NCBI GenBank assembly: GCA_013331805.1
Contig: DUFS01000017.1
Span: 1 to 16,643 of the forward strand
DNA length: 16,643 nt
Origin: Candidatus Micrarchaeota archaeon
Lineage (GTDB): Archaea; Micrarchaeota; Micrarchaeia; Anstonellales; Anstonellaceae
Direction: 5' to 3'
Shown: piece by piece, positions 1 through 15,948 of the stretch
How positions within the stretch are numbered: position 1 is the first letter of the stretch
Layout: every line of letters begins with the position of its first letter
Position numbers and translations under genes: made by a program
Notes under the pieces: model-generated
Database searches by the model: none
Told to the model about the DNA's origin: nothing
Seen by the model: only the letters and a program-made list of their open reading frames with translations

Positions 1-25
1 CGGGTTCGAATCCCGGTCGGGGCGC
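1..25 (+). tRNA. 3' end of a tRNA gene (T-arm plus acceptor 3' strand), truncated by the window edge; isotype not determinable (Asp/Glu-like acceptor stem)
   Basis: CGGG-TTCGAAT-CCCG(G) is a canonical T stem-loop, followed by acceptor strand TCGGGGC and discriminator G. No encoded CCA, and the anticodon lies outside the window. Confidence 0.85.
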
Positions 26-36
26 TTGCGATTGAA

Positions 37-91
37 ATAGCAGCGCCCTTGACACTTCCTAATAAGGGGGTGGACACAAGGGTGTTGCTAT
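37..91 (+). promoter_or_regulatory. Long RNA hairpin covering the integrase RBS region and part of its start codon
   Basis: 37-51 ATAGCAGCGCCCTTG pairs with 77-91 CAAGGGTGTTGCTAT (two G-U pairs). Inner stem 53-60/65-72 has two more G-U pairs. The ATG is at 90-92. Confidence 0.6.
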
Positions 92-1271: not shown

Positions 1272-2400
1272 ATTGTTCAAAAGATGACTCTATATAATTC
1301 AAAATCTCTGTTTTTCCTTTCCCTATTCGTATCCATGCAGGTATCTTATTGTGATTTTCAATATTAACAGTTACACTCCAAATAAATCCACGCTTGCTTT
1401 CTTCCGCCATGTTCACAGAATAGCGTCTCTTCTCTTCAATTAAAAACTTAGCCTTGGCTAATTTCGCGCAAATCTTTTTGACATTATTTCTTCTAATTTT
1501 ATATGGTCTTCTAAATTTTTTTATTCCCAAATATATCGCGTTCCAATCCAGACACATGCCATCCATTTTTGGTATCTTATCGACTAATTTCATATTCTCT
1601 ATTCGAATGTTCTCACTTTCTTCTTCATTTGTTCTATAATCGGGATACTTATTTTCTAAATTTTCGAATTGTCTTCCCCATTCGTGATCAAACTTTGAAT
1701 AGAGGTACTGTAAAATATCAAAACCAATAAACATGCGTCTTTTCGGATCATCATCTTTCATAACAAATTTTTTGTCCCTATATTCTGCAAAATATACGCC
1801 TTTCGCACGGAAAATGTCCATGTGATATGACCCATAATTGTTTCCTCTGTCAAGAGTCTGAACATACTTCATCATACTTAGTTGATCAGTTTTAATATCC
1901 AAGGATGAAAGAAAATTGAGAAATTCTGCCGAATCTGTGTGTGCAATTCTATCTAAGTCGTTGTCAGCTTCTTTTATGTCATCCGTTGGTCTTTCTGAAT
2001 ATCCAGATTTGGGATTTTCTTGGTTTTGAAAAGGATTCTGTTTAGATTTTTTTAATGCAATGTATTCGTCAACGGTTTCCTTTATCCTTTTTCGCATTTC
2101 TCCATCCCACGCATCGTTTTCCCAGATTTTAACCATCAGTTTGGCGCTAATTCGTTTGATAATATCCATGTCTACTAATTCTTCGACATCACATGCTCTA
2201 AGATAAGCTATGTCATCCAAGAGGTTTTCAATATAGTTTTCAACTCTCAAAATCTTTTTTGTTAGACTATTTTTAGCAGTATAATATTTCGCGCGATCTT
2301 CCCCTTTCAGGGCTTTGAGATTCTTTCCAGCAAGTATCTCGCGCTCAATGGGCGTGAAGATTCCTCCTTTTGGAGCATTTTTACCCCTATTTTTGCTCAT
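1258..2400 (-). CDS. Hypothetical protein, possible element regulator (C-terminal wHTH-like segment)
   Basis: 380-aa AT-rich ORF, convergent with the integrase and divergent from the RHH cluster. The segment VKKICAKLAKAKFLIEEKRRYSV is wHTH-like. Confidence 0.7.
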   Translation of the reverse strand: MSKNRGKNAPKGGIFTPIEREILAGKNLKALKGEDRAKYYTAKNSLTKKILRVENYIENLLDDIAYLRACDVEELVDMDIIKRISAKLMVKIWENDAWDGEMRKRIKETVDEYIALKKSKQNPFQNQENPKSGYSERPTDDIKEADNDLDRIAHTDSAEFLNFLSSLDIKTDQLSMMKYVQTLDRGNNYGSYHMDIFRAKGVYFAEYRDKKFVMKDDDPKRRMFIGFDILQYLYSKFDHEWGRQFENLENKYPDYRTNEEESENIRIENMKLVDKIPKMDGMCLDWNAIYLGIKKFRRPYKIRRNNVKKICAKLAKAKFLIEEKRRYSVNMAEESKRGFIWSVTVNIENHNKIPAWIRIGKGKTEILNYIESSFEQSTSR

Positions 2401-2466
2401 AAAGTAATTTACTAAGACATATTTTTATGTATTTCTAACGGCAAAGTCATCTCCGAGGTGAAATGG

Positions 2467-2610
2467 GTGAAACAAACATTGTCGATGTCTGCTGATGAAC
2501 TCAGCCTTCTGAAAGCCCATGCGACTAAGAATGGCCGCACGTTATCTGGGACCATCCGGAAGGCGCTATCCTTGCTTTATGCAAAGGAGGGAGAAAATGC
2601 AGAAACTTGA
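2467..2610 (+). CDS. Small ribbon-helix-helix (CopG-like) protein, not in the ORF track
   Basis: Manual translation MKQTLSMSADELSLLKAHATKNGRTLSGTIRKALSLLYAKEGENAET. GTG start lies 6 nt after GAGGTG (alternative GTG at 2458). Strand-helix-G-R-T-L-S-helix pattern. Confidence 0.75.
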   Translation: MKQTLSMSADELSLLKAHATKNGRTLSGTIRKALSLLYAKEGENAET

Positions 2611-2731
2611 AGGATGGCTGAACTCGTTGGATGAACTCTACAAACTGCTAAAAAAGAAGCAGCAAGCCGTTGAGGGCGGCTTGCCAGAAAACAGTGTTGG
2701 TGATCAATATGGAGAAAAAGGACCTATTTAA
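2597..2731 (+). CDS. Small hypothetical protein (44 aa)
   Basis: ATG at 2597 after GGAGG. Overlaps both neighbours as in a translationally coupled operon. Sequence begins MQKLEGWLNSLDELYKLLKKK. Confidence 0.5.
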   Translation: MQKLEGWLNSLDELYKLLKKKQQAVEGGLPENSVGDQYGEKGPI

Positions 2732-2954
2732 CAATGTGTCTTCGATCTACGACTTTCATTTCGAAGAATTCGCTTTCGCGAGGTTTCGACCCCGTCTTGA
2801 GACCGGTCTGAGCCTCAGAGAATTTTTCAGGCTTGCCGGATGCTGGTTCAGCCTACCCAAGCCAGTCGCACGCCAGCTCCTACACGTCTTTGAAAGAGAC
2901 TATTCCGTGAAAAGACATTACGGACCGTTGGGTATGGAGTTGCACGTAGAATAA
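2709..2954 (+). CDS. Hypothetical protein (81 aa)
   Basis: ATG at 2709 preceded by GGTGAT RBS; overlaps the previous ORF. Confidence 0.6.
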   Translation: MEKKDLFNNVSSIYDFHFEEFAFARFRPRLETGLSLREFFRLAGCWFSLPKPVARQLLHVFERDYSVKRHYGPLGMELHVE

Positions 2955-3145
2955 GGTCGATACCATGAGCAATCTCATTCAGTCCGACATCCCGTCCGTT
3001 ACGGTTCGATACATATCAAAAATATCCAAAGTTACTTACACTATATACACGTGTTTCGTATATACTATACATACTATTCTCGGATCCTTTGCGAATTCCA
3101 TAGAGATTTCGATATTTTTTATACGCATTAAAATTGGTGTTTTTT

Positions 3146-3475
3146 ATGCCAGGAGGTAGGCCAAGGTTAGCGGTTACTGAAAAGGCGGCAAGAACAACAA
3201 TCACTCTAACGCCTGACACTCATGACCATGCTGTTCTGGCAGGCTTAAACATATCTGCCATCTGCGAAGCTGCACTTAGACAACGACTGAATCGCCACAT
3301 TCTGCTGCCAGATGTTCAAAAAACGCTTACTGATGAATTACATGTACTTGAGGCAGAGCTTAATCCGGTGTTAAACGAAAAACAGCATCTAAAGTTCGCT
3401 AATCTCCGTAAAACTATAAACAGACTGGAAGGTGCGGCCTACATTGTGATGGATAAAACGAAGTCTAATGGGTGA
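3146..3475 (+). CDS. CcdA-like/RHH DNA-binding protein
   Basis: RTTITLTPDTHDHAVLAGLNISAICEAAL resembles the CcdA-family RHH signature. GGTG lies upstream of ATG 3146. Confidence 0.65.
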   Translation: MPGGRPRLAVTEKAARTTITLTPDTHDHAVLAGLNISAICEAALRQRLNRHILLPDVQKTLTDELHVLEAELNPVLNEKQHLKFANLRKTINRLEGAAYIVMDKTKSNG

Positions 3476-3481
3476 TATAAC

Positions 3482-4231
3482 ATGACATCGGTAGCCAAAA
3501 AAGCATCAAACCAGAAAAATGCCTTACGCTCGACCGGTCCAAAAAATGTGACTCAAACACGACTAAATGCACTTCAGCATGGTCTTACTGCAGAGGAGAC
3601 AGTCCTTGATAAGAGCCCTTTCTTTGAGTCTAAAGCCGATTTCAGGCGCCTGAATGACCAGTTTATTCAAGATTTGGCTCCTAAGAATGTGGCAGAAGCC
3701 TTCCTTGTCCAGCAAATGGTCCAGGCGTGCTGGCGGCTTCGCAGGGCCTCCAAAGCGGAAAATGCCTTCTTTAGAGAACGCGAAAAAATATTGATTGATG
3801 AAATAGTCAGAAAGCACACCTCTGGTTCGCTTTTTGCGCATCATGATCTGGAAAAGATGAGCAATGCCGCACTCACAGAATTGAAAGAACTTGCAGAAGG
3901 ACATTTAGCAGACTTGGATGCAGGAAAAATTGATCTAAGTGGCTATAGAGGAAATGAAGAATTTGCAAGCATGGACGAAAACAGTCTCAAGAATGAACTC
4001 CGAAAAATGTTTAATGACCAAGTTAGATTTTTTACCGCTCTCATCGGCATAAGGGAAAAGAACGCCTTAGATGAATACGAGGATAGAATAGATTCATCCA
4101 CTATACCGACTGAAAATGGGCTGGATGCTATTCTGCGCTATAGAAACTCAATCCAAAGGGAATTCTATACTGCACTTCGTGAGCTGATGCGCTTGCGCGG
4201 AGCTCCAGCTATAGATGTCCACATAGATTAA
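3482..4231 (+). CDS. Conserved hypothetical mobile-element protein of the 'N-x-x-NA-x-x-STGP...NAL-x-HGL' type
   Basis: Motifs NQKNALRSTGPK...NALQHGL, WRLRRA and LRY...REFYTALREL, recognised from memory as a widespread uncharacterised family. GGTGAT RBS. Confidence 0.8.
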   Translation: MTSVAKKASNQKNALRSTGPKNVTQTRLNALQHGLTAEETVLDKSPFFESKADFRRLNDQFIQDLAPKNVAEAFLVQQMVQACWRLRRASKAENAFFREREKILIDEIVRKHTSGSLFAHHDLEKMSNAALTELKELAEGHLADLDAGKIDLSGYRGNEEFASMDENSLKNELRKMFNDQVRFFTALIGIREKNALDEYEDRIDSSTIPTENGLDAILRYRNSIQREFYTALRELMRLRGAPAIDVHID

Positions 4232-4273
4232 GGTCATTTTTACGAAACGAAGCCAAATGGACAGGTGATGCTT

Positions 4274-4411
4274 ATGTCAATGCCAACATGTATTCGATGT
4301 GGAAATACAACCTTTACGACCTCCGAATATTCTCCAGGATCGATCGGAACCATAGTTATGATCATATGCTGGAGATGCGGTGGAGTCGCGGGTGTAGTAA
4401 GAAAGAAATAA
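4274..4411 (+). CDS. Small zinc-ribbon protein (45 aa), not in the ORF track
   Basis: MSMPTCIRCGNTTFTTSEYSPGSIGTIVMIICWRCGGVAGVVRKK has two CxxCG knuckles. GGTGA RBS at 4264-4268. Confidence 0.75.
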   Translation: MSMPTCIRCGNTTFTTSEYSPGSIGTIVMIICWRCGGVAGVVRKK

Positions 4412-4414
4412 TGG

Positions 4415-5389
4415 TCATTTTTCTACATAATACGGATGTCCTTCTGCAAAGGCTCTAAACCATATTACATATGGCTCTACATCGAAGGGAGTCTCAAATG
4501 CGCACAATCCAGTCGTTTTCATTCCTGGATTTAGATTACCTCCAAATTGACCCGTCGTATAGGTAGAATCAAATTCTCTGTTCTGGGAATCGACAAGTAG
4601 AGTGCTCATACAGTAAAAAGCACTTGATTTTTTACCGACATTTTCAATAGTCACATCAATTACAAAGATTTTTTTATCGCTTGTTTTTCTAACCGCCATG
4701 GAGTTTATCGTGAATTTAGTTGCTCCATTATAGTCGCGTTCCTCCATTGTAGTACTCTTGCCCTCATTTTTCCAATAGTAGTTCCTACAGGTTTCCCCTA
4801 CAGGAATATAGATGTAATCTGTTGTATCACAGCCGCATTTTGAAGCTTTATCAATAAGCTGAAGGGTAGAGTTGCAGTATTTTGGTTTATTATTAGAACA
4901 GCTTTCCACTTGGGTGCCGTCAGGACATTTCGCCAAATCATGTTCACATCTCGCAGTACAAGAACCAGACCCAGTGCAAATATCAGAAGTTCTAATATTC
5001 TTGTCATCACAGTCAGAATCATTCCTGCATTCAGGTTGGATAGCCTGTTTTTTCGTTGTGCAGACCCCCGCAGAACATGTTTTTTCCATGCAGCCTTCAA
5101 TTTCACCAGAACAGCCTATCTGGGGCCCCTCGAACACAAGATTCCTGCACCTATATCCTGTATTCTTGTCGCAGGTATCAATTGTGCAACTATTATTGTC
5201 ATCGCAGCTTTTGGGGCATTTAGGGCACTTGCTGAGATCTGTTACAATACTTTTATCTGGGCACTCGTATGTTTCTGTTGGTTGGGACTGTGGCGGCAGT
5301 GTTTGTGGCTGACTTGACGTCAATTGTCCACTGGAGATGCATCCTGCCAAGAATATCGCAAAGACCAGCCCTAAAATAAGCAGCGTCAA
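4415..5389 (-). CDS. Cys-rich surface lipoprotein with CTDC-like repeats and C-terminal DUF4352-like Ig-fold domain
   Basis: Signal peptide with LAGC lipobox; CDDNNSCTIDTC repeat; C-terminal FVIDVTIENVGK...LVDSQNREFD...LNPG...FETP. TTG start after GGTGG. Confidence 0.8.
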   Translation of the reverse strand: MTLLILGLVFAIFLAGCISSGQLTSSQPQTLPPQSQPTETYECPDKSIVTDLSKCPKCPKSCDDNNSCTIDTCDKNTGYRCRNLVFEGPQIGCSGEIEGCMEKTCSAGVCTTKKQAIQPECRNDSDCDDKNIRTSDICTGSGSCTARCEHDLAKCPDGTQVESCSNNKPKYCNSTLQLIDKASKCGCDTTDYIYIPVGETCRNYYWKNEGKSTTMEERDYNGATKFTINSMAVRKTSDKKIFVIDVTIENVGKKSSAFYCMSTLLVDSQNREFDSTYTTGQFGGNLNPGMKTTGLCAFETPFDVEPYVIWFRAFAEGHPYYVEK

Positions 5390-5468
5390 GCCACCACCCG
5401 CTAAGAATAAGCCGCAAATGATTTAAAATCTATGGCTGGAACTATGTTATATCATAAAGAGGTTCCAC

Positions 5469-5684
5469 ATGTCAAAGACTGAAATACCCAAGAAGATTAT
5501 AGAATTTCTGAAAAAACAGGACTGGCCAGTTACCACTGAGAACGTCATGAAAGAGCTTGACGTTTCTTGGAACACTACACAGGTCCATCTTCTCAAACTG
5601 GTAGCAGACGGCAAAGTCAAATACAAGAAAGTTGGGCGGCAGAACCAGTTTTGGCTTACTGGGAAATATAATAAAGAATTCTAA
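5469..5684 (+). CDS. Winged helix-turn-helix protein
   Basis: IIEFLKK...VTTENVMKELDVSWNTTQVHLLKLVADGKV, followed by wing KKVGRQNQFW. GAGG RBS. Confidence 0.85.
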   Translation: MSKTEIPKKIIEFLKKQDWPVTTENVMKELDVSWNTTQVHLLKLVADGKVKYKKVGRQNQFWLTGKYNKEF

Positions 5685-5793
5685 TCAGGGATTTTCGGGT
5701 CAATGAAGGCGAAGGAATAGAAATTAGACGGGCGCGGATAAAAAAGGCAGAAATAGGGGTTAAACAGATAAAATTTTGCTCTATCAACTAATA

Positions 5794-6561
5794 ATGAAAG
5801 ATATTTCACGAGAACTTCATTCAGTAGATAAAAAGGCTGCACGTCAAGTAGATGAATTACCAAAAAGAAGTCTGACAGGTTTTATCATAATTTTCATTGT
5901 AACAAATTTATTTGCCATATTTCTTGGAGCAATATTCTCTGAACCAATAAACCAATTCTGGCTAAAAATGAATGGTGAAAAACCAAAACTGGAAGTTATT
6001 CCATCTCTTTATCCGACAGCATATGCCAACGCAAGCCTTGTGCGTGTGGATATTACAAATATTGGAAAGATAGATGTTACAAACATGTCCTTATCGTATC
6101 GTTTTCCATGTTACATGAATAAAACAGCAAAGGCACCACTCCATACTTCATTGCTTAAGAGTGGTCAACACGATTTCTTTGAAATTCCAGTACCACTCGT
6201 GCTTAATTGTTCTACATCAACGAAAACATACGATGCAGAGCTTTTCAAGGATAAACGTGGCCAGTGTTTCTTCAAGTCGCAAGGCGAGGTTAAGAGCTCT
6301 GTTTGTATGTATTGTGACTTGAACATGTCAATTGAATCGGAAGATTTTTATCAGGCCTATAGCTCAAGATACCCATACTTTGAGGGAGAAGTTGCGATGG
6401 AGCTTACTTCCGAAAACTGTAGGCCGTATGATGAAGCTGCGAATAAGTCCGAGCTTGTATCTCAGGGTCCATTCGGAATAACAATTATGGATCCGTCTAC
6501 AAGGTGCTTATCAGATCCATCATTTTCTGACTGGTGTAGCGAAAATGGTTTTATCAAGTGA
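5794..6561 (+). CDS. Membrane-anchored hypothetical protein with Cys-containing extracellular domain
   Basis: Single hydrophobic helix FIIIFIVTNLFAIFLGAIF; beta-rich remainder with several N-x-S/T sequons. Start uncertain (5776 or 5794). Confidence 0.75.
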   Translation: MKDISRELHSVDKKAARQVDELPKRSLTGFIIIFIVTNLFAIFLGAIFSEPINQFWLKMNGEKPKLEVIPSLYPTAYANASLVRVDITNIGKIDVTNMSLSYRFPCYMNKTAKAPLHTSLLKSGQHDFFEIPVPLVLNCSTSTKTYDAELFKDKRGQCFFKSQGEVKSSVCMYCDLNMSIESEDFYQAYSSRYPYFEGEVAMELTSENCRPYDEAANKSELVSQGPFGITIMDPSTRCLSDPSFSDWCSENGFIK

Positions 6562-6581
6562 TGTTAGAATTTTACAAAAGT

Positions 6582-7085
6582 CTATTCTGCGCTTTTACTT
6601 CTTATCCATTTTATCAATAATTGTGTATGCTTCTCATCGCTTTTGTACGTATGCCCTAACGCATCTCTAAACCAAATGCATGTCGGTGTTCTGTTTCGGA
6701 GATCGTCGGCCAGTTCTTTTAGGCCTTTTACTACAGTGGCTGTTTCGCCATACTGTATACGCTTTGGTAGCGAATCTATCGGCCCAAACTCCCTGATAAG
6801 TAAGGATTCTCCATTTTCTACTTCTATACCAACGGTTGAAATTGTTACGGGCCTTTCATCAAAATTCTTAGCCACAAGATTCATTATAGTGTCAACTCTA
6901 TTTCTTCCTGGATTAAATAGGTCCGGGCCCCAATCAGCAAGACCAATAGCGCATTCAACTTTGACATCTGGAACATCATTTTTGGATAGTTGTTTAGAAT
7001 CGATGTTTATGTTTTTAGAGCCCACTATGGTGATGTTTTTGTCTCCACGCACTTCTGCGGTATTTCTTTCAAATTTATCTCCCAA
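6582..7085 (-). CDS. Hypothetical protein with shared N-terminal 'GDKN-x-T-x-VGSK' module
   Basis: 167-aa ORF with TTG start after GTGATAAT. The N-terminus is paralogous to that of 7533-8066. Confidence 0.75.
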   Translation of the reverse strand: MGDKFERNTAEVRGDKNITIVGSKNINIDSKQLSKNDVPDVKVECAIGLADWGPDLFNPGRNRVDTIMNLVAKNFDERPVTISTVGIEVENGESLLIREFGPIDSLPKRIQYGETATVVKGLKELADDLRNRTPTCIWFRDALGHTYKSDEKHTQLLIKWIRSKSAE

Positions 7086-7110
7086 ATTATCACATCATAA
7101 ATTCTGTGTC

Positions 7111-7335
7111 CTACTTATTCTGAGGTGCTATTGTGACGCTTATTCTTCCAATTGTTAGCCCTCCCATGAAGCCCAAAACTTGAAAAATTAACAACTGATA
7201 CTCCTGCGCAAAAAACATAGACATGAGCCATGCAATGAACGAGATTCCCGTAAGAATGAAAGACCACATCGTTATCCAGTCGTTAATATTATTACAGATG
7301 GGGGGCATCAATCGGTCTTTTAAGGAAGGCTTCAT
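7111..7335 (-). CDS. Small two-TM membrane protein
   Basis: Two hydrophobic segments; ATGA overlap with the upstream ORF. Confidence 0.65.
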   Translation of the reverse strand: MKPSLKDRLMPPICNNINDWITMWSFILTGISFIAWLMSMFFAQEYQLLIFQVLGFMGGLTIGRISVTIAPQNK

Positions 7336-7520
7336 CTAATCTGCCTCCAATCTTGGCGAGCACCGCACCAAGGACAAATTGTCTGACCAGGTTTTAGCAT
7401 TCCCCCGCAATTCCAACAGCGATAAGCAGTAACATCTCCGTGCTTCTTTGCAAGCTCAGATAAAAACCACAATCCTATACCGAGTATGGCCAAAGTCTCC
7501 AAGTCTTTCTTCTTGACCAT
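7332..7520 (-). CDS. Small protein with N-terminal hydrophobic helix and zinc ribbon
   Basis: CWNCG...CPWCG knuckles; AGGAG RBS. Confidence 0.75.
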   Translation of the reverse strand: MVKKKDLETLAILGIGLWFLSELAKKHGDVTAYRCWNCGGMLKPGQTICPWCGARQDWRQIR

Positions 7521-7532
7521 CTATATTCTCCT

Positions 7533-8066
7533 TCAAATTCTCATCTGAGGTTCGTCTTTGATTACCTCTCTCTCCTTTGAGGTCTTCTCATGGCCGCATT
7601 TTTTGCATACATAGTGGTATTCTATCAGTCTTTCTTCTCCTCCCATCACTCTATTCCGTTTCAAGACAGTTGCTTTTCGTTTTTGAAGGGCAAAATTACT
7701 ATTGCATTGGTCGCATTTTCGACGCTCTGATAAAACGTGAAACACGCCAAATAATAGGAGGAATATCAATCCTGCCCACAAAAGCTCGTTTGGAGCTGTT
7801 GCGCTAAGGACAAAATAACCTCCAAGGAACCCAACAGCTGGTAGGCCAAATATTGCATAACCAGCAACAATATTCTCACGGAAGACGCGCTCAAAAAGGA
7901 GCAAAAAAATCTTTTCTAATGGCTCTTCTGGCACAATTTCGTAGTTTTCGATAGGCTCCTTCTTTTGACCCCCGTGTATGTGTATAGTGGTATCCTTAGA
8001 GCCTACCACTGTGACATTCTTGTCGCCATGCACTTCCGCCTTGTTTCCTTTGAATTCATCCCCCAT
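7533..8066 (-). CDS. Membrane protein with shared N-terminal module and C-terminal zinc ribbon
   Basis: Two TM segments; CDQC...CKKCG; N-terminus MGDEFKGNKAEVHGDKNVTVVGSK. Confidence 0.8.
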   Translation of the reverse strand: MGDEFKGNKAEVHGDKNVTVVGSKDTTIHIHGGQKKEPIENYEIVPEEPLEKIFLLLFERVFRENIVAGYAIFGLPAVGFLGGYFVLSATAPNELLWAGLIFLLLFGVFHVLSERRKCDQCNSNFALQKRKATVLKRNRVMGGEERLIEYHYVCKKCGHEKTSKEREVIKDEPQMRI

Positions 8067-8095
8067 ACTCCCACGTCATAATTCCGACGGGCTGG

Positions 8096-8105
8096 CTTTA
8101 TATAA
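8096..8105 (-). promoter_or_regulatory. Putative archaeal TATA box for the 8066-6582 operon
   Basis: TTATATAAA on the minus strand ~30 nt upstream of ATG 8066. Confidence 0.5.
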
Positions 8106-8183
8106 GTTGCCGCAATAAGAGGTAATAGTGAGTAAAAACCACGCCTGCAGGAGGTGTGGGCGAAACTATTTCTGTCGTATGCG

Positions 8184-8196
8184 CCCGGTCGGGGCG
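8184..8196 (+). repeat. att core copy 2 (tRNA 3'-end repeat)
   Basis: CCCGGTCGGGGCG identical to 12-24. Confidence 0.9.
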
Positions 8197-8274
8197 TCGC
8201 TCGCTCACGCTTCGCGCCGCAGCCCGACCTATTTTCGCTTCGCGAAAAAGCCGCCAAGCGCTTCCTGCTTGTCG

Positions 8275-8288
8275 TCCCGGTCGGGGCG
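8275..8288 (+). repeat. att core copy 3
   Basis: TCCCGGTCGGGGCG identical to 11-24. Confidence 0.9.
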
Positions 8289-8436
8289 AAAAAGTCTTTT
8301 TCACGTCGGAGAATGGAAAATGGCGGGTTCGATTTAGGTATGCTACCGGCGTCAAACGCCCTATTTTCATGGTTTCGACATTTGTGGTTTCACGATAATC
8401 TTGGCTGGAATTCCTGTGGTTCCGACCTGTGCAGTC

Positions 8437-10035
8437 CTAGAGGGGGTCAGTACACGCATCATGTTCCTTCTCTTCCAAGAATTTTGCGAGTTCAACGCGG
8501 TATCTTTCTCTGTCAATATGTTTTGCCCTGCTAAAATATTTCTTGTATGAGCTGTTTTCAGAAAAACTCAGAATCTTGCCTATGATGAACATCTCCTCGA
8601 AGCATTCCGATGTCGGCAGGCGGTTTTTCTGGATAAGGGTGGCAGCCTTGCCAATGTCGCCTTTGCATGCGTGATATGCCGCTGCCAGAAAAACGTATTT
8701 TTCCCTCACGCTGTCGCTTGCCTCGGTGTAATCGTAGAATTCATCCGCGTCAGGCCCGCCATCCGTTTCCTTGACCCTGATGTCTGCCGCGAACTGGAGA
8801 CTGTTTGGTTCACGCATTAATGCCCGGATAAGAGTCAAATCGATTTCGGCATCCTCCACTTTTCCGCGGCTCTTCTCAAGGCAGGCGGCTGTTTCGCGCA
8901 GGAAAGACACGATTTCATCAGCTGCCATACCCCTCGTCTTGCGGCTGTATTCTTCATACCCTTTCTGGTCCGCCGGCGCGAAATTTTCCTTCATGAATTC
9001 CCGTTGCCGTTCCATAATATTCTCCCGCGTGAATGCCATGTCAAGGCCTTTGAGTTCCCTGTGCTCTTTCTTCTCAGCCTCTTGAAGCGCAAGGAAGCTT
9101 TTTTCAAACCCCGGCAAATCCCTTTTCACCAATGAGAGGTATGCCGAGATCAGCTCCTTTTCGTCCAGCAGGTCAATGCCGAAAATATAGCTCGTATCGT
9201 ATACCGCCTGCATAAACCCATCGCATCCAGCAAGGTAATCCTCAGCCATTGCGATGAATTTTTCGCGGTCGTTCGCCAATCCGAAAAAATCCTCAAGGAA
9301 TTCGTCAAAGCCCATGCCATGCCTTTCAATGAAACGGCGGTTGATTTCCATTATTTTCCTGTCCTGCACCTGGAATTTGCCCTTGCTCTTGTATTCCGCA
9401 ATTTCCTGCAGCCCGTGCTCGCGGCTGTATTGCAACAGCTGCTTGCTTTCCTCTTTTGCAGATTCCAGATCTGCCAGCATCTGGCTGAGCTTCGAGAATT
9501 CAGATATGCCGCTGAACAGGTCATCACTCGCAATCAGCCCTATGAAGGAATATTTGCCCGGGTGATTCGGGTTTTCTATCAGCCTCGCATTGACATTGCC
9601 GTTCTTGAAGCCAAGTTCCGATGAGCTGATTACGGTGAACGCTTCGTTGCTGTCAGCATCAACAAAGTGGAATTCCCGCAGGTCAAGCCCTTTCAAATCC
9701 TTTTCGCCTGTTTTTTCGCTGCGAATAAACTTCAGGCTCCGTCTTGTTGAATTTTTGATAAGCATAAACTCCTTTTTTTCGCCATCGCCAAGCGAACTGT
9801 AGAATGCACCCGAAAGGAAGTCGATGAGAAGCCTGCCCTCATGCAAATAATTGAAAAGCGCGTTCTCGATTATGAACTCATTGAATGTCTTTTCGCGCCT
9901 TTCCTTATTCTGACCGTGCGTGAAGTGTTCCATCACTGGCTCCAGGACAAGCAGCGACGAGTTGGTGACGTCGTCTACAATCCCGATTTTCTCAAGATAG
10001 CGGAAAGTGCTGTCGTAAACTTCCAGATATACCAT
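8437..10035 (-). CDS. Hypothetical protein (532 aa, acidic, mostly helical)
   Basis: Long ORF translationally coupled to the upstream gene (TAATG overlap). No family recognised. Confidence 0.8.
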   Translation of the reverse strand: MVYLEVYDSTFRYLEKIGIVDDVTNSSLLVLEPVMEHFTHGQNKERREKTFNEFIIENALFNYLHEGRLLIDFLSGAFYSSLGDGEKKEFMLIKNSTRRSLKFIRSEKTGEKDLKGLDLREFHFVDADSNEAFTVISSSELGFKNGNVNARLIENPNHPGKYSFIGLIASDDLFSGISEFSKLSQMLADLESAKEESKQLLQYSREHGLQEIAEYKSKGKFQVQDRKIMEINRRFIERHGMGFDEFLEDFFGLANDREKFIAMAEDYLAGCDGFMQAVYDTSYIFGIDLLDEKELISAYLSLVKRDLPGFEKSFLALQEAEKKEHRELKGLDMAFTRENIMERQREFMKENFAPADQKGYEEYSRKTRGMAADEIVSFLRETAACLEKSRGKVEDAEIDLTLIRALMREPNSLQFAADIRVKETDGGPDADEFYDYTEASDSVREKYVFLAAAYHACKGDIGKAATLIQKNRLPTSECFEEMFIIGKILSFSENSSYKKYFSRAKHIDRERYRVELAKFLEEKEHDACTDPL

Positions 10036-10430
10036 TATATCCCCGGTCTGGTTCGCAATCTCGTTCTTTTCCTCTCAGCCCTGAATGCGTGTGTGTCCCC
10101 ACAGTGGAAGCGGATTTCGCCCTCCGCGCGCGTGTCCGAAAGGAATGCCATCCAGCCGTCGCCGGATGCCTCGTCGCACTCGTCGTTCCCCGCCCACGTG
10201 AAATCGAACACGCACAGCCCTGTGCCTGTCGATGCGATGTACTTCCCGTCCATCTCCCCGGAAACGAGGATGAACTGGAAGCTTCCGTGCGCGCCCTTTT
10301 CAAGCGTAATGTGCGCCGGCACTTCCATGTCAATGTCCTTGCGGGCAAAGTCGTCCATGTGGACAAACCTCCACTTGCCGAGAAACCGGCTTTTCCAGCC
10401 GCTTGCCATTGCTTTTGCCACGTCTTTCAT
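10035..10430 (-). CDS. Conserved hypothetical beta-rich protein
   Basis: Pattern GKWRFVHM...FTWAGNDECDEASGDGW...GEIRFHCGD; ATGA overlap with the upstream gene. Confidence 0.8.
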   Translation of the reverse strand: MKDVAKAMASGWKSRFLGKWRFVHMDDFARKDIDMEVPAHITLEKGAHGSFQFILVSGEMDGKYIASTGTGLCVFDFTWAGNDECDEASGDGWMAFLSDTRAEGEIRFHCGDTHAFRAERKRTRLRTRPGI

Positions 10431-10993
10431 CCGTTATCCCCGCCCTCTTCAGTCCCTTCAATATCAATCCCGTCATCCTTGCCAAGCGTGCCGTCCAGCA
10501 GCATCTCGTAATAATCTGTGAGCGTGTCCTTGTGACCCCACCCTTCCGCGCTTTTGCCTATGATTTTCTCAATCCTTGGCTTGAACTGCGGAAGAAGTGA
10601 GGGATTGTCTTTCAGGAGCCCCAATGAGGATATGTACATGCTTTCCATACTGGAATAGAATGCCTCGTAAAGGTCGCCGTATTCGTTCTCCACCTCAATC
10701 CCAATCTCAACGTAGGAAACCATCATGTCTAGCATGAGTGGCAGCTCGGGCTTGAGCCTGCGGAAGTCAAGGACAGCCTGCCTTGCCGCGCGCAGGTTTA
10801 TCCTTTCGGAGAACAGCGCCTCCCATATCTTCTTTTTGTAGTATGCTGTTGTGGCGGGGAAGTCGCCCCTGCCCTTAAACCTCATTTCCAGCCATTCGGC
10901 ATTCTCCTTCTTCAAATTGGCAAAGTCAAGGATGATTGCACGAAGCTGACCAGCATCCAATTGAGAAATCTGCTCTTTTAGCTCGGAGTTCAT
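10427..10993 (-). CDS. DUF6155-like helical protein
   Basis: YYKKKI...LRAARQAVLDF...LDMMVSYVEIG...YGDLYEAFYSS resembles DUF6155 as recalled. GGAGG RBS. Confidence 0.7.
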   Translation of the reverse strand: MNSELKEQISQLDAGQLRAIILDFANLKKENAEWLEMRFKGRGDFPATTAYYKKKIWEALFSERINLRAARQAVLDFRRLKPELPLMLDMMVSYVEIGIEVENEYGDLYEAFYSSMESMYISSLGLLKDNPSLLPQFKPRIEKIIGKSAEGWGHKDTLTDYYEMLLDGTLGKDDGIDIEGTEEGGDNG

Positions 10994-10997
10994 TTCC

Positions 10998-11095
10998 TTA
11001 AACCTCCCAGTGTCCGCTGCTTGTCTTTCCCGCCCCGCGGATGGCGTTTTTGGCTTTGAGCTTTTCCAGGCATTCCTTCACTTTTTTTGACTCAT
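10998..11095 (-). pseudogene. Remnant of a wHTH C-terminus
   Basis: Reads KKVKECLEKLKAKNAIRGAGKTSSGHWEV*. The ATG at 11095 is out of frame across an A7 run. Confidence 0.5.
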
Positions 11096-11101
11096 TTCAG
11101 T

Positions 11102-11139
11102 ATACTAAACAATACTAAACTAATCTAATTGTTTAGTAT
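11102..11139. repeat. ATACTAAAC direct/inverted repeat cluster
   Basis: ATACTAAAC at 11102 and 11112; perfect 12-bp inverted repeat 11102-11113 / 11128-11139. Confidence 0.75.
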
Positions 11140-12431
11140 CATTTAACAATCTTGAAACTGCTGGCGCGCGCCCTCCCGGTTTTCTGTAAAAGCCCCAAGT
11201 GCACTAGATGGGCAAAATCCTTCACTGCGGCAGTGACGGAGATATCGTACTTCCTGGCCACGATGGTCGGCCGCAGCTGCTTGCCTTCCTGCATTGCAGC
11301 CAGGATGTGTTTCTGCCGCTCGTTCAGTTTTTGAGTCTGCATGCTCAACCGGACTGAGAACATCGGGTCTGTAACGAACTGCGGGTCTTTGAGGCCGTTC
11401 TGGCGCATGGACTGGTAGATTTTGAGGGTGCCCGTCCCCCATTTTTCAACATAGCCGCAAAGGTAGAGTGCATGGGCAACGTGGGGGTTCTTGATGACGG
11501 AAGAGTGGACGCTGGCCAAATCGTTGATGCTCAGCCCCTCCAGGCGCCCAGGATTCTTGATTTCCAGGTAGTCCGGGCCTATTGTCACGTAGATGTAGGA
11601 GGCGAAGAAGTAATCGCGGTGCACAATCGCGTTGACCAACGCCTCGCGGATGGCTTCCAGCGGGATGCGTAGTTTTTCGATGCGCCGCACGCCCTCCATA
11701 TGGATTTCCTTCGGAATCTGGGAAAGAATGAATTCCAATGTCTGTTCGACAGCCTGGATCAGGTTGCCGTCGAAATCATGCATGGCCCTAAATTCAAGGC
11801 CTGACGAGACAACTGCGCACCGGATGCCCCAGACCGGGAAAAAATCTGCCGGCTTTTTGCCAAAGAGCATCACCGCCCCGTTCTTGAGCTCCTTGCCGTC
11901 TATCAGGCTGAGCTTCGAAAGGATTTCGTCTGCCTTATTTGTTGGGTGGGAAAGACGGCTGGAAGCGGCAGCCATGGACACGAACCTGCGCAGGCTGGCC
12001 TCGTCCAAGTCGGACATGTTGGCATTTTGGCAGGGTGCGTCATCGAAAAAGACGGTCTTGTTCATGAAGAGGCTGCGCAGCTCTTCCGGGTCTGTGACCT
12101 TGAGGGTGGTTTTGTTCACTCGCTTGTAGGCGATGCCTTTGTAGAATATGGGCTTGCGCTTGGCGGGATGGACACGGATGCGGAGGATTTCATGCAGACC
12201 GCTCTTCTCGAAATCGGTTTCGAACACGACCGGCGGCGCGGTCTCATCGTGCATCTTCCTGGTGAATTGCTCGAGCTTGTGCTTCCCGATGCTGGCGCCC
12301 TTTGCGACGCCTTGGTCGGTCATTCCAACGTAGATTGTCCCGCCGTCTCCGTTGGCAAAGGCAGCCATGGTCTTGGCAATGCCGTCCTCGTCCAGGCTTT
12401 CCTTGAACTCTGTTTTCTGGTCTTCCTGCAT
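11139..12431 (-). CDS. AlbA_2 (Schlafen-like) + HATPase_c_4 + C-terminal wHTH protein
   Basis: EDQKTEFKES...AFANGDGGTIYVG (AlbA_2); AIREALVNAIVHRDY, EIKNPG, NPHVA and VEKWGTG (HATPase_c_4); C-terminal HTH. Confidence 0.92.
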   Translation of the reverse strand: MQEDQKTEFKESLDEDGIAKTMAAFANGDGGTIYVGMTDQGVAKGASIGKHKLEQFTRKMHDETAPPVVFETDFEKSGLHEILRIRVHPAKRKPIFYKGIAYKRVNKTTLKVTDPEELRSLFMNKTVFFDDAPCQNANMSDLDEASLRRFVSMAAASSRLSHPTNKADEILSKLSLIDGKELKNGAVMLFGKKPADFFPVWGIRCAVVSSGLEFRAMHDFDGNLIQAVEQTLEFILSQIPKEIHMEGVRRIEKLRIPLEAIREALVNAIVHRDYFFASYIYVTIGPDYLEIKNPGRLEGLSINDLASVHSSVIKNPHVAHALYLCGYVEKWGTGTLKIYQSMRQNGLKDPQFVTDPMFSVRLSMQTQKLNERQKHILAAMQEGKQLRPTIVARKYDISVTAAVKDFAHLVHLGLLQKTGRARASSFKIVK

Positions 12432-12452
12432 GCTGCTGTTTGGGCGAAGAGG

Positions 12453-12507
12453 GTTTATAATACTAATTAATACTAAACTTGCTTTCTTGTTTAATATAGT
12501 TTAGAAT
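12453..12507 (-). promoter_or_regulatory. TATA box overlapped by ATACTAAAC-type operator-like repeats
   Basis: Minus-strand TTATAAAC at 12453-12460. ATACTAAT at 12460 and ATACTAAAC at 12470; inverted GTTTAATAT at 12489 and GTTTAGAAT at 12499. Confidence 0.6.
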
Positions 12508-12596
12508 AAGCTATGGGGGCTAAAAAGCGAGTGAAAGGTGCCGCAGAAGTAGAGATTCCAACGTCAGTGCAACGCCAAACTCTAACTGTTTGTGCT

Positions 12597-12612
12597 AATC
12601 CCGGTCGGGGCG
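12597..12612 (+). repeat. att core copy 4
   Basis: AATCCCGGTCGGGGCG identical to 9-24 (16 bp). Confidence 0.92.
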
Positions 12613-12771
12613 AAGATCTGTCCACGTCGTAGAGTGAAAACGGGCGAGTTCGGTTTGGTGCACCTTACGAGACTATAGCTAAAGACTTAAATATGGAAAC
12701 ATTTTAGTTGCCGCTAATATCGACACTGCTGTGTCTATAGTTCGAGGAAACGATCGATCCGACAAATGAAT

Positions 12772-13758
12772 TTACTCTAGGATCTTAATCGGGGGCAGAT
12801 ATTTTGGAATATCCCTCCTCAGATCAAAAATTTCAAATAGGGTTGTGTTAAAAATTTTGTACAGTCTTGAAAGACTTGCGGCTATTTCTGATGCAGATTT
12901 TTCAAGCTGTTTCGCAATATCTTTGATTGAAACAGATAGCATGAGTTTGTCATTGCTGCTATCAGCCACTGAAGTCATTTTATCAATTAGCAATAGATCA
13001 AGCGTTGCTCGTTCAGTTGCACTCTTTGTCGGAGCAAATGTGATGGCATCGAATAGGTAGGCTTCGTCTGAGTAGAAACGAAGAGGGGAGTATTTCACGC
13101 CATAATGCAGAATTATGCGGTAGGCTAGGACATCGCACCTATCATAGTGGGGCGCAAATATTCCTTCATCGCGATAAAGACTGTCTAGCAAGGATTCTGG
13201 CTTAGAAAGCTTTTCATCCTGGGGGCGCTCAATGGAGTGCAAGCCAATATAAGGAATGTTCCGTTGGAGAGTACGAAGAAGGCCAAGATAAGTCAGCGCA
13301 TCAGGAACTGCCAACGGTTCAAAAGAAACTACTGCATCGAATTTCTCGTTGGGAATTTGCTCGAAACTCTTCTTCTCAGTCCGCAATCCAAGTGAACGCA
13401 GATGTTGAACCCAAAGGTCGCTTATGTCTGTGGCCAGGATCGCATATCCAGCATTTGCAAGGGATTTTGCAACTTTTCCTGTATATGCTGCTGGAAAATA
13501 TATCGAATGTAGCTTATGATTTATGATGCGTTCAGATGCAAGATATGTTTCAAGCTTTCTGAATTCTTCGGCATTGAAATTAAAATCGGCTTTTTCCTGC
13601 TTTTCGTGCGGTATTGGGTTTTCCCAGCCACACTCGGAATGAACCAGAGGCAAGGAACTCCTGAAGTCAGGTAATCGAAGTCGCATATTTGCTATGTTTT
13701 TAGGAGCTATGACAGACTTTGTAAACTCTCCTTTTCGAATGATAAGACTAGAACTCAT
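12772..13758 (-). CDS. Class I SAM-dependent methyltransferase-like protein with C-terminal HTH-like segment
   Basis: Degenerate motif I YFPAAYTG, then ILATDIS and KFDAVVSFEP; C-terminal SIKDIAKQLEKSASEIAASLSRL. Confidence 0.65.
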   Translation of the reverse strand: MSSSLIIRKGEFTKSVIAPKNIANMRLRLPDFRSSLPLVHSECGWENPIPHEKQEKADFNFNAEEFRKLETYLASERIINHKLHSIYFPAAYTGKVAKSLANAGYAILATDISDLWVQHLRSLGLRTEKKSFEQIPNEKFDAVVSFEPLAVPDALTYLGLLRTLQRNIPYIGLHSIERPQDEKLSKPESLLDSLYRDEGIFAPHYDRCDVLAYRIILHYGVKYSPLRFYSDEAYLFDAITFAPTKSATERATLDLLLIDKMTSVADSSNDKLMLSVSIKDIAKQLEKSASEIAASLSRLYKIFNTTLFEIFDLRRDIPKYLPPIKILE

Positions 13759-13922
13759 ATAGTTAAAATCAGTGGTTAAAAGTATAAAAATCTAGTGGCA
13801 CCCCCACAATTTCCTAGGATCTCTTTGGTCGGCTTGATACTGGATCGGTATCCTAACGGACGGTCTGTTGCAGCCTAAGGCGGTTTTATCCCTTTATACA
13901 CATTTTATCCCTAAAACCGCTA

Positions 13923-13970
13923 AGCTTCCAACGCCTTGCAGATGTTACCGATTAACCTTGGGCGGGCGGC
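13923..13970 (+). repeat. Module right-end arm repeat (copy of 14734-14781)
   Basis: 37/48 ungapped identity with 14734-14781 by manual alignment. Confidence 0.8.
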
Positions 13971-14027
13971 TCTCGACGTGGTGGCAAGGCTTTAAAACCT
14001 AGTCCGGCAGAATAAAACCATTGCTTC

Positions 14028-14067
14028 CCTGCGTTTGCCTGGTTCGAAAGGACTGGGCAACCGCAGG
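14028..14067 (+). promoter_or_regulatory. GAAA-tetraloop hairpin in the NYN gene leader
   Basis: CCTGCG-T-TTGCCTGGTTC-GAAA-GGACTGGGCAA-C-CGCAGG, with three G-U pairs. Confidence 0.6.
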
Positions 14068-14082
14068 CTAACGGTCCTTCTT

Positions 14083-14718
14083 ATGAAAACTTCTGCCGCG
14101 CTGTTCATAGACGGCTCCAACTTCTACCATTCGCTCAAGGCAGATGGCCATCTTCCCTTCAACGCCGAGCACTTTGGCAAGCTGTTCGAGCAGCTGTCTG
14201 ACAAGTTCGAGCTCAAGCGCATCTATTTCTATGACGCCCTCAAGGACAGGACAAAAGACCCTGAAGGCTACGCCAGGCAGCAGAAGTTCCATTCCAGCCT
14301 GTCGAAGCTCAGATTTCCCCTCAAGATAAAGACACGAAAGCTCCGCTACCTTGCCAATCTGACGCAAGAGGAAGTCGAAAATGCTGCAACTGCGGTTGGC
14401 ATTGTGGACTCCTGCAGGGAAAAGCTGTGGGCGCTGCTGCACAAGCTGGGGATGATCAGGCTGACAAAGGAGAAAGGCATTGACGTAATGCTGATTGCTG
14501 ATGCCATTGAGCTTGCAAGGACGAAGGATCATGAAGCGGTAATTCTCCTTTCTGGCGATGGCGACTATGTTCCTGGCATAGAGTTAATCCGAAAGTTCGG
14601 CGCCAGGACAGTGAACCTCCACCTCTACCGCGGCAGTTCTACCGAGCTTAGGAATTCCTGCCACCAGAGGATCCAGATCGAGTTTGACGAGGAAGGCACT
14701 TACCTGGAATATCACTGA
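14083..14718 (+). CDS. NYN domain (LabA/DUF88, PIN-like fold) ribonuclease
   Basis: FIDGSNFY, RIYFYD, EKGIDV, LLSGDGDY and STELRNSC motifs. ATG 14083 preferred over TTG 14035. Confidence 0.92.
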   Translation: MKTSAALFIDGSNFYHSLKADGHLPFNAEHFGKLFEQLSDKFELKRIYFYDALKDRTKDPEGYARQQKFHSSLSKLRFPLKIKTRKLRYLANLTQEEVENAATAVGIVDSCREKLWALLHKLGMIRLTKEKGIDVMLIADAIELARTKDHEAVILLSGDGDYVPGIELIRKFGARTVNLHLYRGSSTELRNSCHQRIQIEFDEEGTYLEYH

Positions 14719-14780
14719 AAAACGTCTGGCTTCAGCTTCCAACGGGGTGCAGGTGCTACAGCTTAACCTAATGCAGGCGG

Positions 14781-14794
14781 CCCGGTCGGGGCGC
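14781..14794 (+). repeat. att core copy 5 (outermost attR)
   Basis: CCCGGTCGGGGCGC identical to 12-25, followed by a pyrimidine-rich tract and host-like genes. Confidence 0.9.
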
Positions 14795-15216: not shown

Positions 15217-15267
15217 AGGCTGGCTGCTTTTTGTAAAACCAGGAGGCGCGAATTGGCAGGTGGAAGC

Positions 15268-15948
15268 ATGGGGGAGGCAAAAAGGGGCGTGGCAATTCTG
15301 GTGCCGGTGTCAGACTCGGTGCCCGGGCTTTTCGTGCATGCGTTTGCCAATGCCTATGTTTCCATAATCTCAAAGGGCCTCGCGCTGACCACGTTCGTGA
15401 ACGAGGCGGTCCCGCTTGAGAAGTCCCGCGAGCGGCTTTTTTCCGATGCGCTTTCCATGGAGCCCGAGCTTTCATACATCCTTTGGCTGGATGCCGACAT
15501 GCTGGTGAACTCCGGCCACGTGGGAAAGCTCATAGATTTCATGGACTCGCACCCTGAGGCCGACGCGGCGACCGCGCTTTACTTTCGGAAGTCCACTTAT
15601 GAGCCCCTGTGCTACAGGCGCCTTGCCAAAGGGGGCGAAACCAAGGTGCCGCTCGAATCCTTCATGCCCGAAGGAAGCGAGGCTGCCGAGGTGGACGCTG
15701 CGGGCCTGGGCTGCATGCTCATCCGCACGCGCTCAGTCAAGGAGAAACTGCTCCCGTCGCTTCAGGGCAGGAAAAGGATTTTCTGGTTCGACCCGGACGG
15801 GCATTCAGAGGACATTAATTTCTGCCTGCTCATGAGGAACGCGGGCATGAGGCTGTTTGCACTCCCGGAAGTCTCAGTTCCCCACGCAGGAGGGTTCGTC
15901 TCGCGCTGGCACTATGAGAAAAAGAAGGAGGACGGGAAGCCTCAGTAG
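15268..15948 (+). CDS. GT-A fold glycosyltransferase-like protein
   Basis: YILWLDADM (DxD), EVDAAGLGCMLI and SEDINFC motifs. Confidence 0.85.
   Translation: MGEAKRGVAILVPVSDSVPGLFVHAFANAYVSIISKGLALTTFVNEAVPLEKSRERLFSDALSMEPELSYILWLDADMLVNSGHVGKLIDFMDSHPEADAATALYFRKSTYEPLCYRRLAKGGETKVPLESFMPEGSEAAEVDAAGLGCMLIRTRSVKEKLLPSLQGRKRIFWFDPDGHSEDINFCLLMRNAGMRLFALPEVSVPHAGGFVSRWHYEKKKEDGKPQ

Follow-up and report, generated by a model that had tools for sequence, protein, structure and literature searches.

A conserved arm at a fixed distance from tRNA-end repeats, probable part of the attachment site of an integrative-element family in Micrarchaeota

The attP of phage lambda has arm-type sites and acts with Int, IHF and Xis, among which IHF is a host factor that helps recombination. 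In streptococci, cis-mobilisable elements (CIMEs) are devoid of integrase, are bounded by the attachment (att) sites of integrative conjugative or integrative mobilisable relatives, are found stacked at one tRNA or gene end and move only with help in trans. In Archaea, att sites need bases beyond the stretch shared by attB and attP, according to the main review of archaeal tyrosine recombinases, in whose text the terms "arm-type", "zinc" and "DPANN" do not occur (PMC8371274). Finally, the tycheposons of Prochlorococcus are presented as tRNA insertions flanked by partial tRNAs and arranged in tandem stacks where newcomers push older elements inward (10.1101/2020.12.28.424599). Here, we analysed a stretch of 16,643 nt (the window) that forms the first 16.6 kb of a 34.5-kb contig (DUFS01000017.1) of a Candidatus Micrarchaeota archaeon (GCA_013331805.1; 1.19 Mb, 83 contigs, 91.5% complete). 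We focused on an arm containing the 8-mer TTCCAACG, which stands before copies of the end of a tRNA-Asp gene. The genome that holds the window is G000, other G numbers being compared genomes and L numbers compared loci.

Positions 25-14793 are best described as a stack of elements at the 3′ end of tRNA-Asp, each of them closed by a repeat of the final 13 nt of that gene. This core, CCCGGTCGGGGCG, corresponds to positions 12-24 of the window and 61-73 of tRNA-Asp; it is found exactly at five places in the window, the tRNA end itself and 8184, 8276, 12600 and 14781 (0.22 expected), with no further copy in a scan of the 83 contigs. The insert is bounded by direct repeats identical to the tRNA 3′ end, as expected for a tRNA-integrated element, and the rest of the tRNA-Asp gene lies at the start of contig C71 (Rfam tRNA score of 60 bits). 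On the other side, the gene at 15253-15948 comes after the second core in G001, and the sequence from 16236 onward is collinear with G008, G019 and G020, in two of which the tRNA is only 3-5 kb off. Since this synteny shows the native chromosome restarting after 14793, the DNA from 25 to 14793 is inserted, and the same synteny gives the empty site of the whole stack. The G+C content of the window is 47% against 53% for the genome. We named the successive elements E1, which bears an integrase gene at one end, E2, E3, E4a and E4b (Table 1); no PF00589 match was found in 8289-14780, so that E3, E4a and E4b are without a recombinase gene.

The 8-mer TTCCAACG is present at 12556, 13926 and 14737, with TAAC at an offset of 27 nt in each case (12583, 13953 and 14764), and the cores at 12600 and 14781 stand 44 nt past it. 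On all these points, the preliminary description of this DNA was accurate. The GTGCA that it placed after the 8-mer is also present but shifted by one base, at offset +11 at 12556 and +10 at 14737. In addition, it had proposed a weaker fourth copy at 8139, where the letters CCACGCCTGCAG are indeed found but belong to a distinct arm type that is not similar in register. When the 50 nt before each core were compared in register, against 200,000 random pairs from the genome, the arm before 14781 and that at 13926 were identical at 37 of 50 positions, a score that no random pair equalled, and the arm before 12600 shared 21 of 50 positions with either of them (P=0.0085), including 8 consecutive identical positions (P=0.0007). 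No such similarity links the arms before 8184 and 8276 to any other (12-17 of 50, P at least 0.11); the in-register comparison therefore leaves three arms in the window and not four.

The bare 8-mer is not enriched in the genome (32 copies for about 36 expected). The composite motif TTCCAACG-N3-5-TGCA-N9-13-TAAC occurs three times in the 1.19 Mb, always at the arms of the window, each time ahead of a core or of the place expected for one. No core follows the copy at 13926, where CGACGTGGTGG comes directly instead. Aligned with the junction at 12556-12640, this site appears to be an arm-core-left-terminus junction that lost about 20 nt including the core.

Relatives of the arm were searched for with two models from which the core was excluded: R1, a sequence-only covariance model of the three window arms, run on 42 genomes of the family, and R2, a model of five arms, run on 151 genomes of the order. 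R1 found two relatives. The first (G021:C10) immediately precedes an exact copy of the tRNA-Glu(CUC) 3′ end, a tRNA inside which the contig begins, and the 2.1 kb between the two tRNA-Glu repeats encode an AbiEi/AbiEii pair. The second, in another genus (G413:C91), stands 2 kb downstream of tRNA-Asp, with CCCGGTC coming after it. No gaps occur in the five-arm alignment, which has AG, T, AACG, A, TAA and G as invariant columns. R2 gave 21 matches outside its training set; among the best 16 of these 21, 7 abut a tRNA 3′ end or its repeat, as judged by ARAGORN, Rfam or sequence, 7 showed no link of this kind and 2 are undecided.

Among the tRNA-linked sites, three are right arms standing before tRNA-end repeats, in G003:C28, in G017:C130, where the arm is the right end of a 0.84-kb integrase-less element, and at the right attachment site (attR) of a 16.8-kb element in G003:C7, located via a core-repeat search. 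Inverted copies of the arm directly follow a tRNA in G003:C7, G246:C116, G246:C48, G019:C2 and G110:C15, the latter belonging to another family and following tRNA-Ser, and three of these copies adjoin an integrase gene 26-33% identical to that of the window. The tRNA ends whose repeats are preceded by relatives of the arm are those of tRNA-Glu, tRNA-Arg, tRNA-Asp and class-II tRNA. Viral relatives were recovered by querying with an alignment of 11 integrase sequences, single integrase queries against the viral contigs having found nothing. In the IMG/VR contig L268, a 15-mer that resembles a tRNA end stands between 22-nt inverted arms (18 of 22 matching), with a related integrase gene (int) about 170 nt downstream, and the viral contig L267 has TTTAAC before CCCGGTCAAGGCG at a distance of 17 nt, as in the window.

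The distance from box to core was counted across these loci. In all eight right arms counted, which stand at tRNA-Asp, tRNA-Glu, tRNA-Arg and class-II tRNA, AAYG (AACG) of the box begins precisely 40 nt ahead of the 13-nt tRNA-end block. Three of five left arms, once reverse-complemented, have the box 40 nt from the tRNA end; in the other two the distance is 38 nt and about 43 nt, the second value depending on an uncertain junction. Of the 13 arms, five were training rows of R2. The arm of G000:C37, where the tRNA was confirmed, is also 40 nt from the junction by a count made by eye. Moreover, the right arm aligns locally to the reverse complement of the left arm in the five integrase-bearing elements tested (P=0.017 for E1, 0.02 for L022 and 0.0003 for each of L013, L017 and G003:C7), and the register in G003:C7 is identical on both sides (14-54 and 14-54). 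The same comparison found no alignment in three of four integrase-less elements (P=0.70 for E3, 0.52 for E4 and 0.25 for the G017 element), and gave a borderline value of 0.03, in both orientations, for the element of G021.

The left ends of the small elements share a T-run followed by ACGTCGKAGAR, 12-15 nt past the core. This terminus was also found after tRNA ends in G021:C10, G017:C130, G003:C17 and G000:C37, and was absent downstream of eight other tRNAs of the genome. Between these ends, the cargo of E3, E4a and E4b is unrelated, as had been stated, with Schlafen-like, NYN and unknown proteins. In E3, the protein encoded at 11139-12431 combines Schlafen AlbA_2 and HATPase_c_4 domains and matches pAgo-associated models of PADLOC, and the other three proteins belong to no known family. 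The cargo of the window is partly defence-like, and it varies among elements of the family, with AbiEi/AbiEii in G021 and a TrmB-like regulator in C37; no cargo homology was found between E4a and the element of G021.

Variation among strains was followed in four public metagenomic runs aligned to the window, as contigs only, from which rare forms drop out. One contig of run X5 passes from the tRNA-Asp body straight into the core at 8184 and on through E2 to 8587. This contig thus lacks the 8.2-kb integrase element, for which it provides an empty site, while E1 is covered by further contigs of that run. This precise loss indicates either recent mobility or two co-existing strains. In several runs, single contigs depart from the window at 12544, 12672-12709 and 13897, the outer edges of arm-core-left-terminus modules, and no contig of the four runs shows an empty site for E3 or E4 individually. 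We also noted that a metagenome contig of the same strain (L122, 99.3% identical) differs only at 12652-12704, just inside the left end of E4a, where a replaced patch has 19 extra bases.

Altogether, we propose that the TTCCAACG arm is the outer right half, of about 50 nt, of the attachment site of one family of tRNA-end-inserting elements in Micrarchaeota (DPANN), a reading to which we give a probability of roughly 0.6. It builds on the homology of the arms, their fixed spacing, their linkage to tRNA ends, the dyad symmetry, the absence of int from the small elements and that of E1 from one contig; that a protein binds the arm, that the arm acts in recombination and that the small elements are mobilised in trans is inferred. 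In integrase-bearing members, the complete site would be a dyad of about 100 bp, composed of the box (consensus GCTTTTAACGTCGTAAA), 36 nt, the 13-nt core identical to the tRNA, 36 nt again and the inverted box, after which comes int. Most likely, the box acts together with two inner blocks, T(T/G)AAC at -17 and GTTTGTGC at -12, to keep the recombinase, or a helper that binds DNA, at a set distance from the point of crossover in the core. E3, E4a and E4b may then be seen as integrase-less derivatives with a right arm and a short left terminus. As they have no integrase, their movement, if any, would occur only via an integrase provided in trans; and as their boxes are half-decayed and one core is lost, some of these small elements are probably fixed relics. 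The arm was initially proposed to be a cis-acting sequence that marks the ends of cassettes. This holds in part, in that it is a position-fixed end module conserved at four kinds of tRNA in several genomes, mirrored across the core in integrase-bearing members and bounding unrelated cargo, but one arm is without a core. We consider it most likely to be a cis-acting part of the recombination site.

How does this site compare with those described? Lambda attP is likewise an extended site, with conserved sites tens of bases away from a short core shared with the target and with helper or host factors that may act on it. Core-distant sites are found here on both arms, at 40 nt on the right (8 of 8) and at 38-43 nt on the left of int elements. 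Unlike in lambda, the arms make up a dyad, being inverted copies that both lie 40 nt from the core. The integrase also differs, as an Xer-like protein with a C-terminal four-cysteine zinc ribbon and without an N-terminal arm-binding domain, and the box is a putative protein site. The CIMEs resemble the integrase-less elements that the window stacks at one tRNA. In contrast to them, the present elements are archaeal, their mobility is putative, and only their right arm is of the autonomous type: it matches that of the int-bearing G003:C7 element, whereas the left end is a different and shorter terminus, not an inverted arm.

With the archaeal XerA, XerC and pNOB8-like integrases, the elements share an int gene that stays intact after insertion, the tRNA 3′ end as target and tandem integration; they differ by their DPANN host, the zinc ribbon and a defined outer box and spacing (PMC8371274). 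The XerA-like model of NCBIfam gives the E1 integrase 123 bits, under its cut-off, and the nearest solved structure is that of XerA (4a8e). The catalytic residues R..K..H-R-H..W..Y and the four cysteines are invariant in all 11 aligned relatives, and it is only a suggestion that the zinc ribbon might read the outer box. Tycheposons also form stacks at tRNA genes, with degenerate remnants and differences among co-existing cells, but their host is bacterial and the available portion of their description mentions no outer box at a fixed distance (10.1101/2020.12.28.424599).

Several observations weigh against the arm being half of an attachment site. The arms of the window are degenerate versions of the family box: they keep only the left half, TTCCAACG, of the palindromic TTTTAACGTCGTAAA, and ACGTC is gone from two of them. 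Without an inverted left arm, the integrase-less elements have half of the dyad at most. The window's own integrase, in E1, goes with a different arm type; it has no N-terminal arm-binding domain, a SAM-like domain starting from about residue 36. Furthermore, no integrase of the G003:C7 type was found in the 91.5%-complete genome, whose only two PF00589 genes are in C60 (498-995) and C64. No joints or excised forms of E3 or E4 were seen in the contigs of the four runs, which are blind to rare forms. The strict motif TTCCAACGN{3,4}TGCAN{11,12}TAAC gave only chance matches in coding sequence among 401 genomes of the phylum (three genomes, two distinct sequences), and a metagenome scan with TTCCAACGN{36,40}CGGTCGGGGCG gave no independent record of the exact 8-mer with the core: among its 78 loci, three are the same strain (99.3-99.97% identical) and the others are chance matches in conserved genes of other organisms. 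Finally, in five genomes TTTTACGWCGTRRAA follows a TATA box by about 31 nt and precedes the start of gyrB by 28-72 nt, and the same palindrome precedes ABCE1 in this genome.

The alternative that best survives, although we consider it unlikely, is that of shared ancestry only, in which the arms would be decaying, functionless leftovers whose spacing was inherited from one ancestral end. It agrees with the degeneracy of the window arms (box half lost, no core at 13926, no folding signal), with the lack of a cognate integrase in the genome and of visible E3/E4 excision joints, and with the exact motif being private to the strain. Neutral decay, however, would not keep a base-exact spacing in 8 of 8 right ends. 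The invariant columns and the 40-nt distance were held at four tRNA targets, in several genera and two families, despite differing cargo and cores, and the module is mirrored across the core beside int genes.

Less probable is that the box is a transcription operator, or a promoter-proximal site, of a host regulator that would control int or cargo outside the recombination machinery, although this reading is genuinely supported. Its position after the TATA box of gyrB and before ABCE1 speaks for it, as does the left box of G003:C7, about 45 nt before the start of int, and a palindrome fits a dimeric regulator. The gyrB-upstream palindrome was found in relatives at loci L241, L243, L244 and L245. 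The full palindrome TTTTnACGnCGTnAAAA, which is probably the operator of a DNA-binding protein, has three sites in the genome (C52:4988, C13:2763 and C36:15839) against none in the reversed control; these precede gyrB, ABCE1 and a PKD-domain gene, and the box of the att arm is the same motif. As the palindrome is also at host promoters, binding by a host protein or a role in transcription is as open as binding by the integrase. Nevertheless, an operator would explain neither the mirrored copy beyond the core at the same 40 nt nor the right arms that face no gene, and the box lies before the TATA-like run in int elements but after the TATA in gyrB. The two sites other than that of gyrB, before ABCE1 and a PKD-domain protein, revealed no coherent regulon. 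Roles in transcription and in recombination can coexist if the host factor is a recombination helper.

We consider it very improbable that the arm arose by decay from the 3′ half of a tRNA gene, left by a long ancient identity between attP and tRNA, with a spacing set by tRNA geometry. CTCTAACT in the E3 arm does match an anticodon-stem/variable-loop stretch of tRNA-Glu(CUC), one base out of register, and the 8 nt before core 3 are T-loop-like, with a match that extends to 19 of 21 nt. This candidate was nonetheless rejected: six arms (five of the TTCCAACG type and that of E1) align with the bodies of tRNA-Glu, with and without intron, and of tRNA-Asp no better than shuffles (P at least 0.14), and the Rfam tRNA model sees nothing at the arms. 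As for a folded single-stranded site like the attC of integrons, suggested by small cassettes that follow each other in tandem next to one tyrosine recombinase gene and carry unrelated cargo, its probability is practically negligible and it was discarded, since DNA folding is no better than in shuffles in any of six arms (z from -0.76 to +1.56), the cassettes are oriented either way, tRNA ends make up the repeats and the integron-integrase model TIGR02249 gives 66.6 bits for a cut-off of 265.

Beyond the attachment site itself, a wider scheme can be put forward tentatively, although we find it rather doubtful: a Micrarchaeota cassette system at tRNA 3′ ends, in which junction modules of about 165 bp (right arm, 13-nt core and T-run/ACGTCGKAGAR terminus) would bound integrase-less defence or toxin-antitoxin units (AbiE, NYN, Schlafen-like), zinc-ribbon integrases acting in trans would swap these units among strains and tRNA loci, the host-promoter palindrome would serve as recognition box and E2 as native landing pad. 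If so, recombination would be tied to a host DNA-binding factor. The elements belong to a known kind, that of tRNA-targeting integrative elements, and it is the outer box and the fixed spacing that are defined here. Full-text literature searches (Micrarchaeota, integrase, tRNA), judged by titles and abstract openings, found no description of such elements, and the mobile elements of DPANN have barely been described. The locus and its relatives offer a concrete attachment-site design for one integrase family, with a 13-nt tRNA-end core and mirrored boxes 40 nt out. They also illustrate that tiny symbiotic archaea stack small integrase-less cassettes, some of them defence-like, behind tRNA genes, in stacks that vary among co-existing strains. 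This design could help to annotate element borders in DPANN genomes and could provide a simple substrate for the first biochemistry on their integrases.

Table 1. Features of the 16,643-nt window, in order of position
Feature	Position	Strand	Remarks
tRNA-Asp(GUC) 3′ end, truncated by contig start	1-24	+	Full genes with the same 23-nt end in relatives
E1	25-8183		Integrase-bearing element
Left arm of E1 (GAAATAG..CGCCC), inverted copy of E1 right arm	25-89	+	Local alignment, P=0.017
Xer-like tyrosine integrase with C-terminal four-Cys zinc ribbon	90-1271	+	Pfam PF00589, 1e-27
Right arm of E1, separate arm type with CCACGCCTGCAG	8124-8183	+	Homologous to right end of element in G001
Core copy 1 (8184-8196), structured module E2, core copy 2 (8276-8288)	8184-8288	+	Homologous modules after tRNA-Asp and tRNA-Arg elsewhere
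E2	8197-8275		79-nt module between cores 1 and 2
E3	8289-12599		Four genes (to 12612 with core)
Left-end module of E3, T-run then ACGTCGGAGAA (8303-8313)	8289-8370	+	79% identity over 61 nt to 12599-12656
E3 cargo, four genes	8437-12431	-	Pfam, PADLOC
Right arm of E3, box TTCCAACGTCAGTGC (12556-12570), TAAC 12583, GTTTGTGC	12544-12599	+	
Core copy 3	12600-12612	+	Exact core match
E4a	12613-13970		One gene
Left-end module of E4a, ACGTCGTAGAG at 12624-12634	12613-12709	+	Strain variants break at 12672-12709
E4a cargo, 328-aa protein	12772-13758	-	Weak methyltransferase-like matches only
Core-less right arm, then box-like CGACGTGGTGG (13974-13984) directly	13914-13970	+	77% identity over 48 nt to 14734-14781
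E4b	13971-14780		One gene (to 14793 with core)
E4b cargo, NYN-domain nuclease	14035-14718	+	Pfam PF01936, 1.8e-21; PADLOC NYN and HEC-09
Right arm of E4b, TTCCAACG 14737, TAAC 14764	14725-14780	+	
Core copy 4, native chromosome after	14781-14793	+	Exact core match and synteny

Some minor observations concern the arms and their relatives. A hairpin CAAAC-N7-GTTTG (12575-12591) was rejected as a defining feature, being missing from E4-type arms and from several relatives; it is kept in G021 and, with a single compensatory change, in G413. Another integrase-less element of the genome, 2 kb long, lies behind an intron-bearing class-II tRNA (C37:14805-16805, L254). Its left terminus is the same, its right arm is related, and its genes encode the TrmB-like regulator and a 281-aa protein of no known family. 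Near the att junction of G003:C28 (L214, 2500-2575), Rfam detects a group II intron domain at 43.5 bits for a gathering score of 40. Genome-wide, the heptamer ACGWCGT is about five-fold rarer than its reversed control (83 against 422). The gyrB gene (C52:5056-7803) is a single open frame of 1093 aa whose match to the family is split into two pieces, suggestive of an intein.

Within E3, AT-rich ATACTAA repeats at 11102-11145 and 12460-12503, 75% identical over 44 nt and just upstream of the starts of two minus-strand genes, look like promoters. E1 contains an 86-nt direct repeat (7015-7100 and 7996-8081; 73% identical, E=7e-8) that covers the starts of the minus-strand genes 6582-7085 and 7533-8066. 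It also contains a small open reading frame (ORF) that matches the CcdA antitoxin family at 3134-3475 (Pfam 7e-5, barely above the cut-off), beside an ORF of 249 aa with no family match.

Finally, modules of the E2 type, in which two exact copies of a tRNA 3′ end bracket a structured segment of about 70-80 nt, were seen in the window (8184-8288), in L165 (4735-4828, minus strand), in L079 (7978-8075) and in L219 (17059-17149). Their internal segment is complementary to the core and varies with the tRNA acceptor: GCCCGACC here, GCCTTGGCC in G413 and CCCGCCG for tRNA-Arg in G003. In G020, only the second tRNA-end copy pairs perfectly with the tRNA 5′ strand, and RNAfold closes the acceptor stem of the natural G413 sequence by the second copy (z of -3.5). 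Such a module might resemble an intron, serve as a spare target site or represent a mini-element reduced to its ends. Long anticodon-loop introns, missed by ARAGORN, are present in many tRNA-Glu, tRNA-Arg and class-II tRNA genes of the genus (L167, L175, L186 and others), and the tRNA-Asp of two relatives (L030 and L031; G002 and G012) has an apparent insert within the T-loop.

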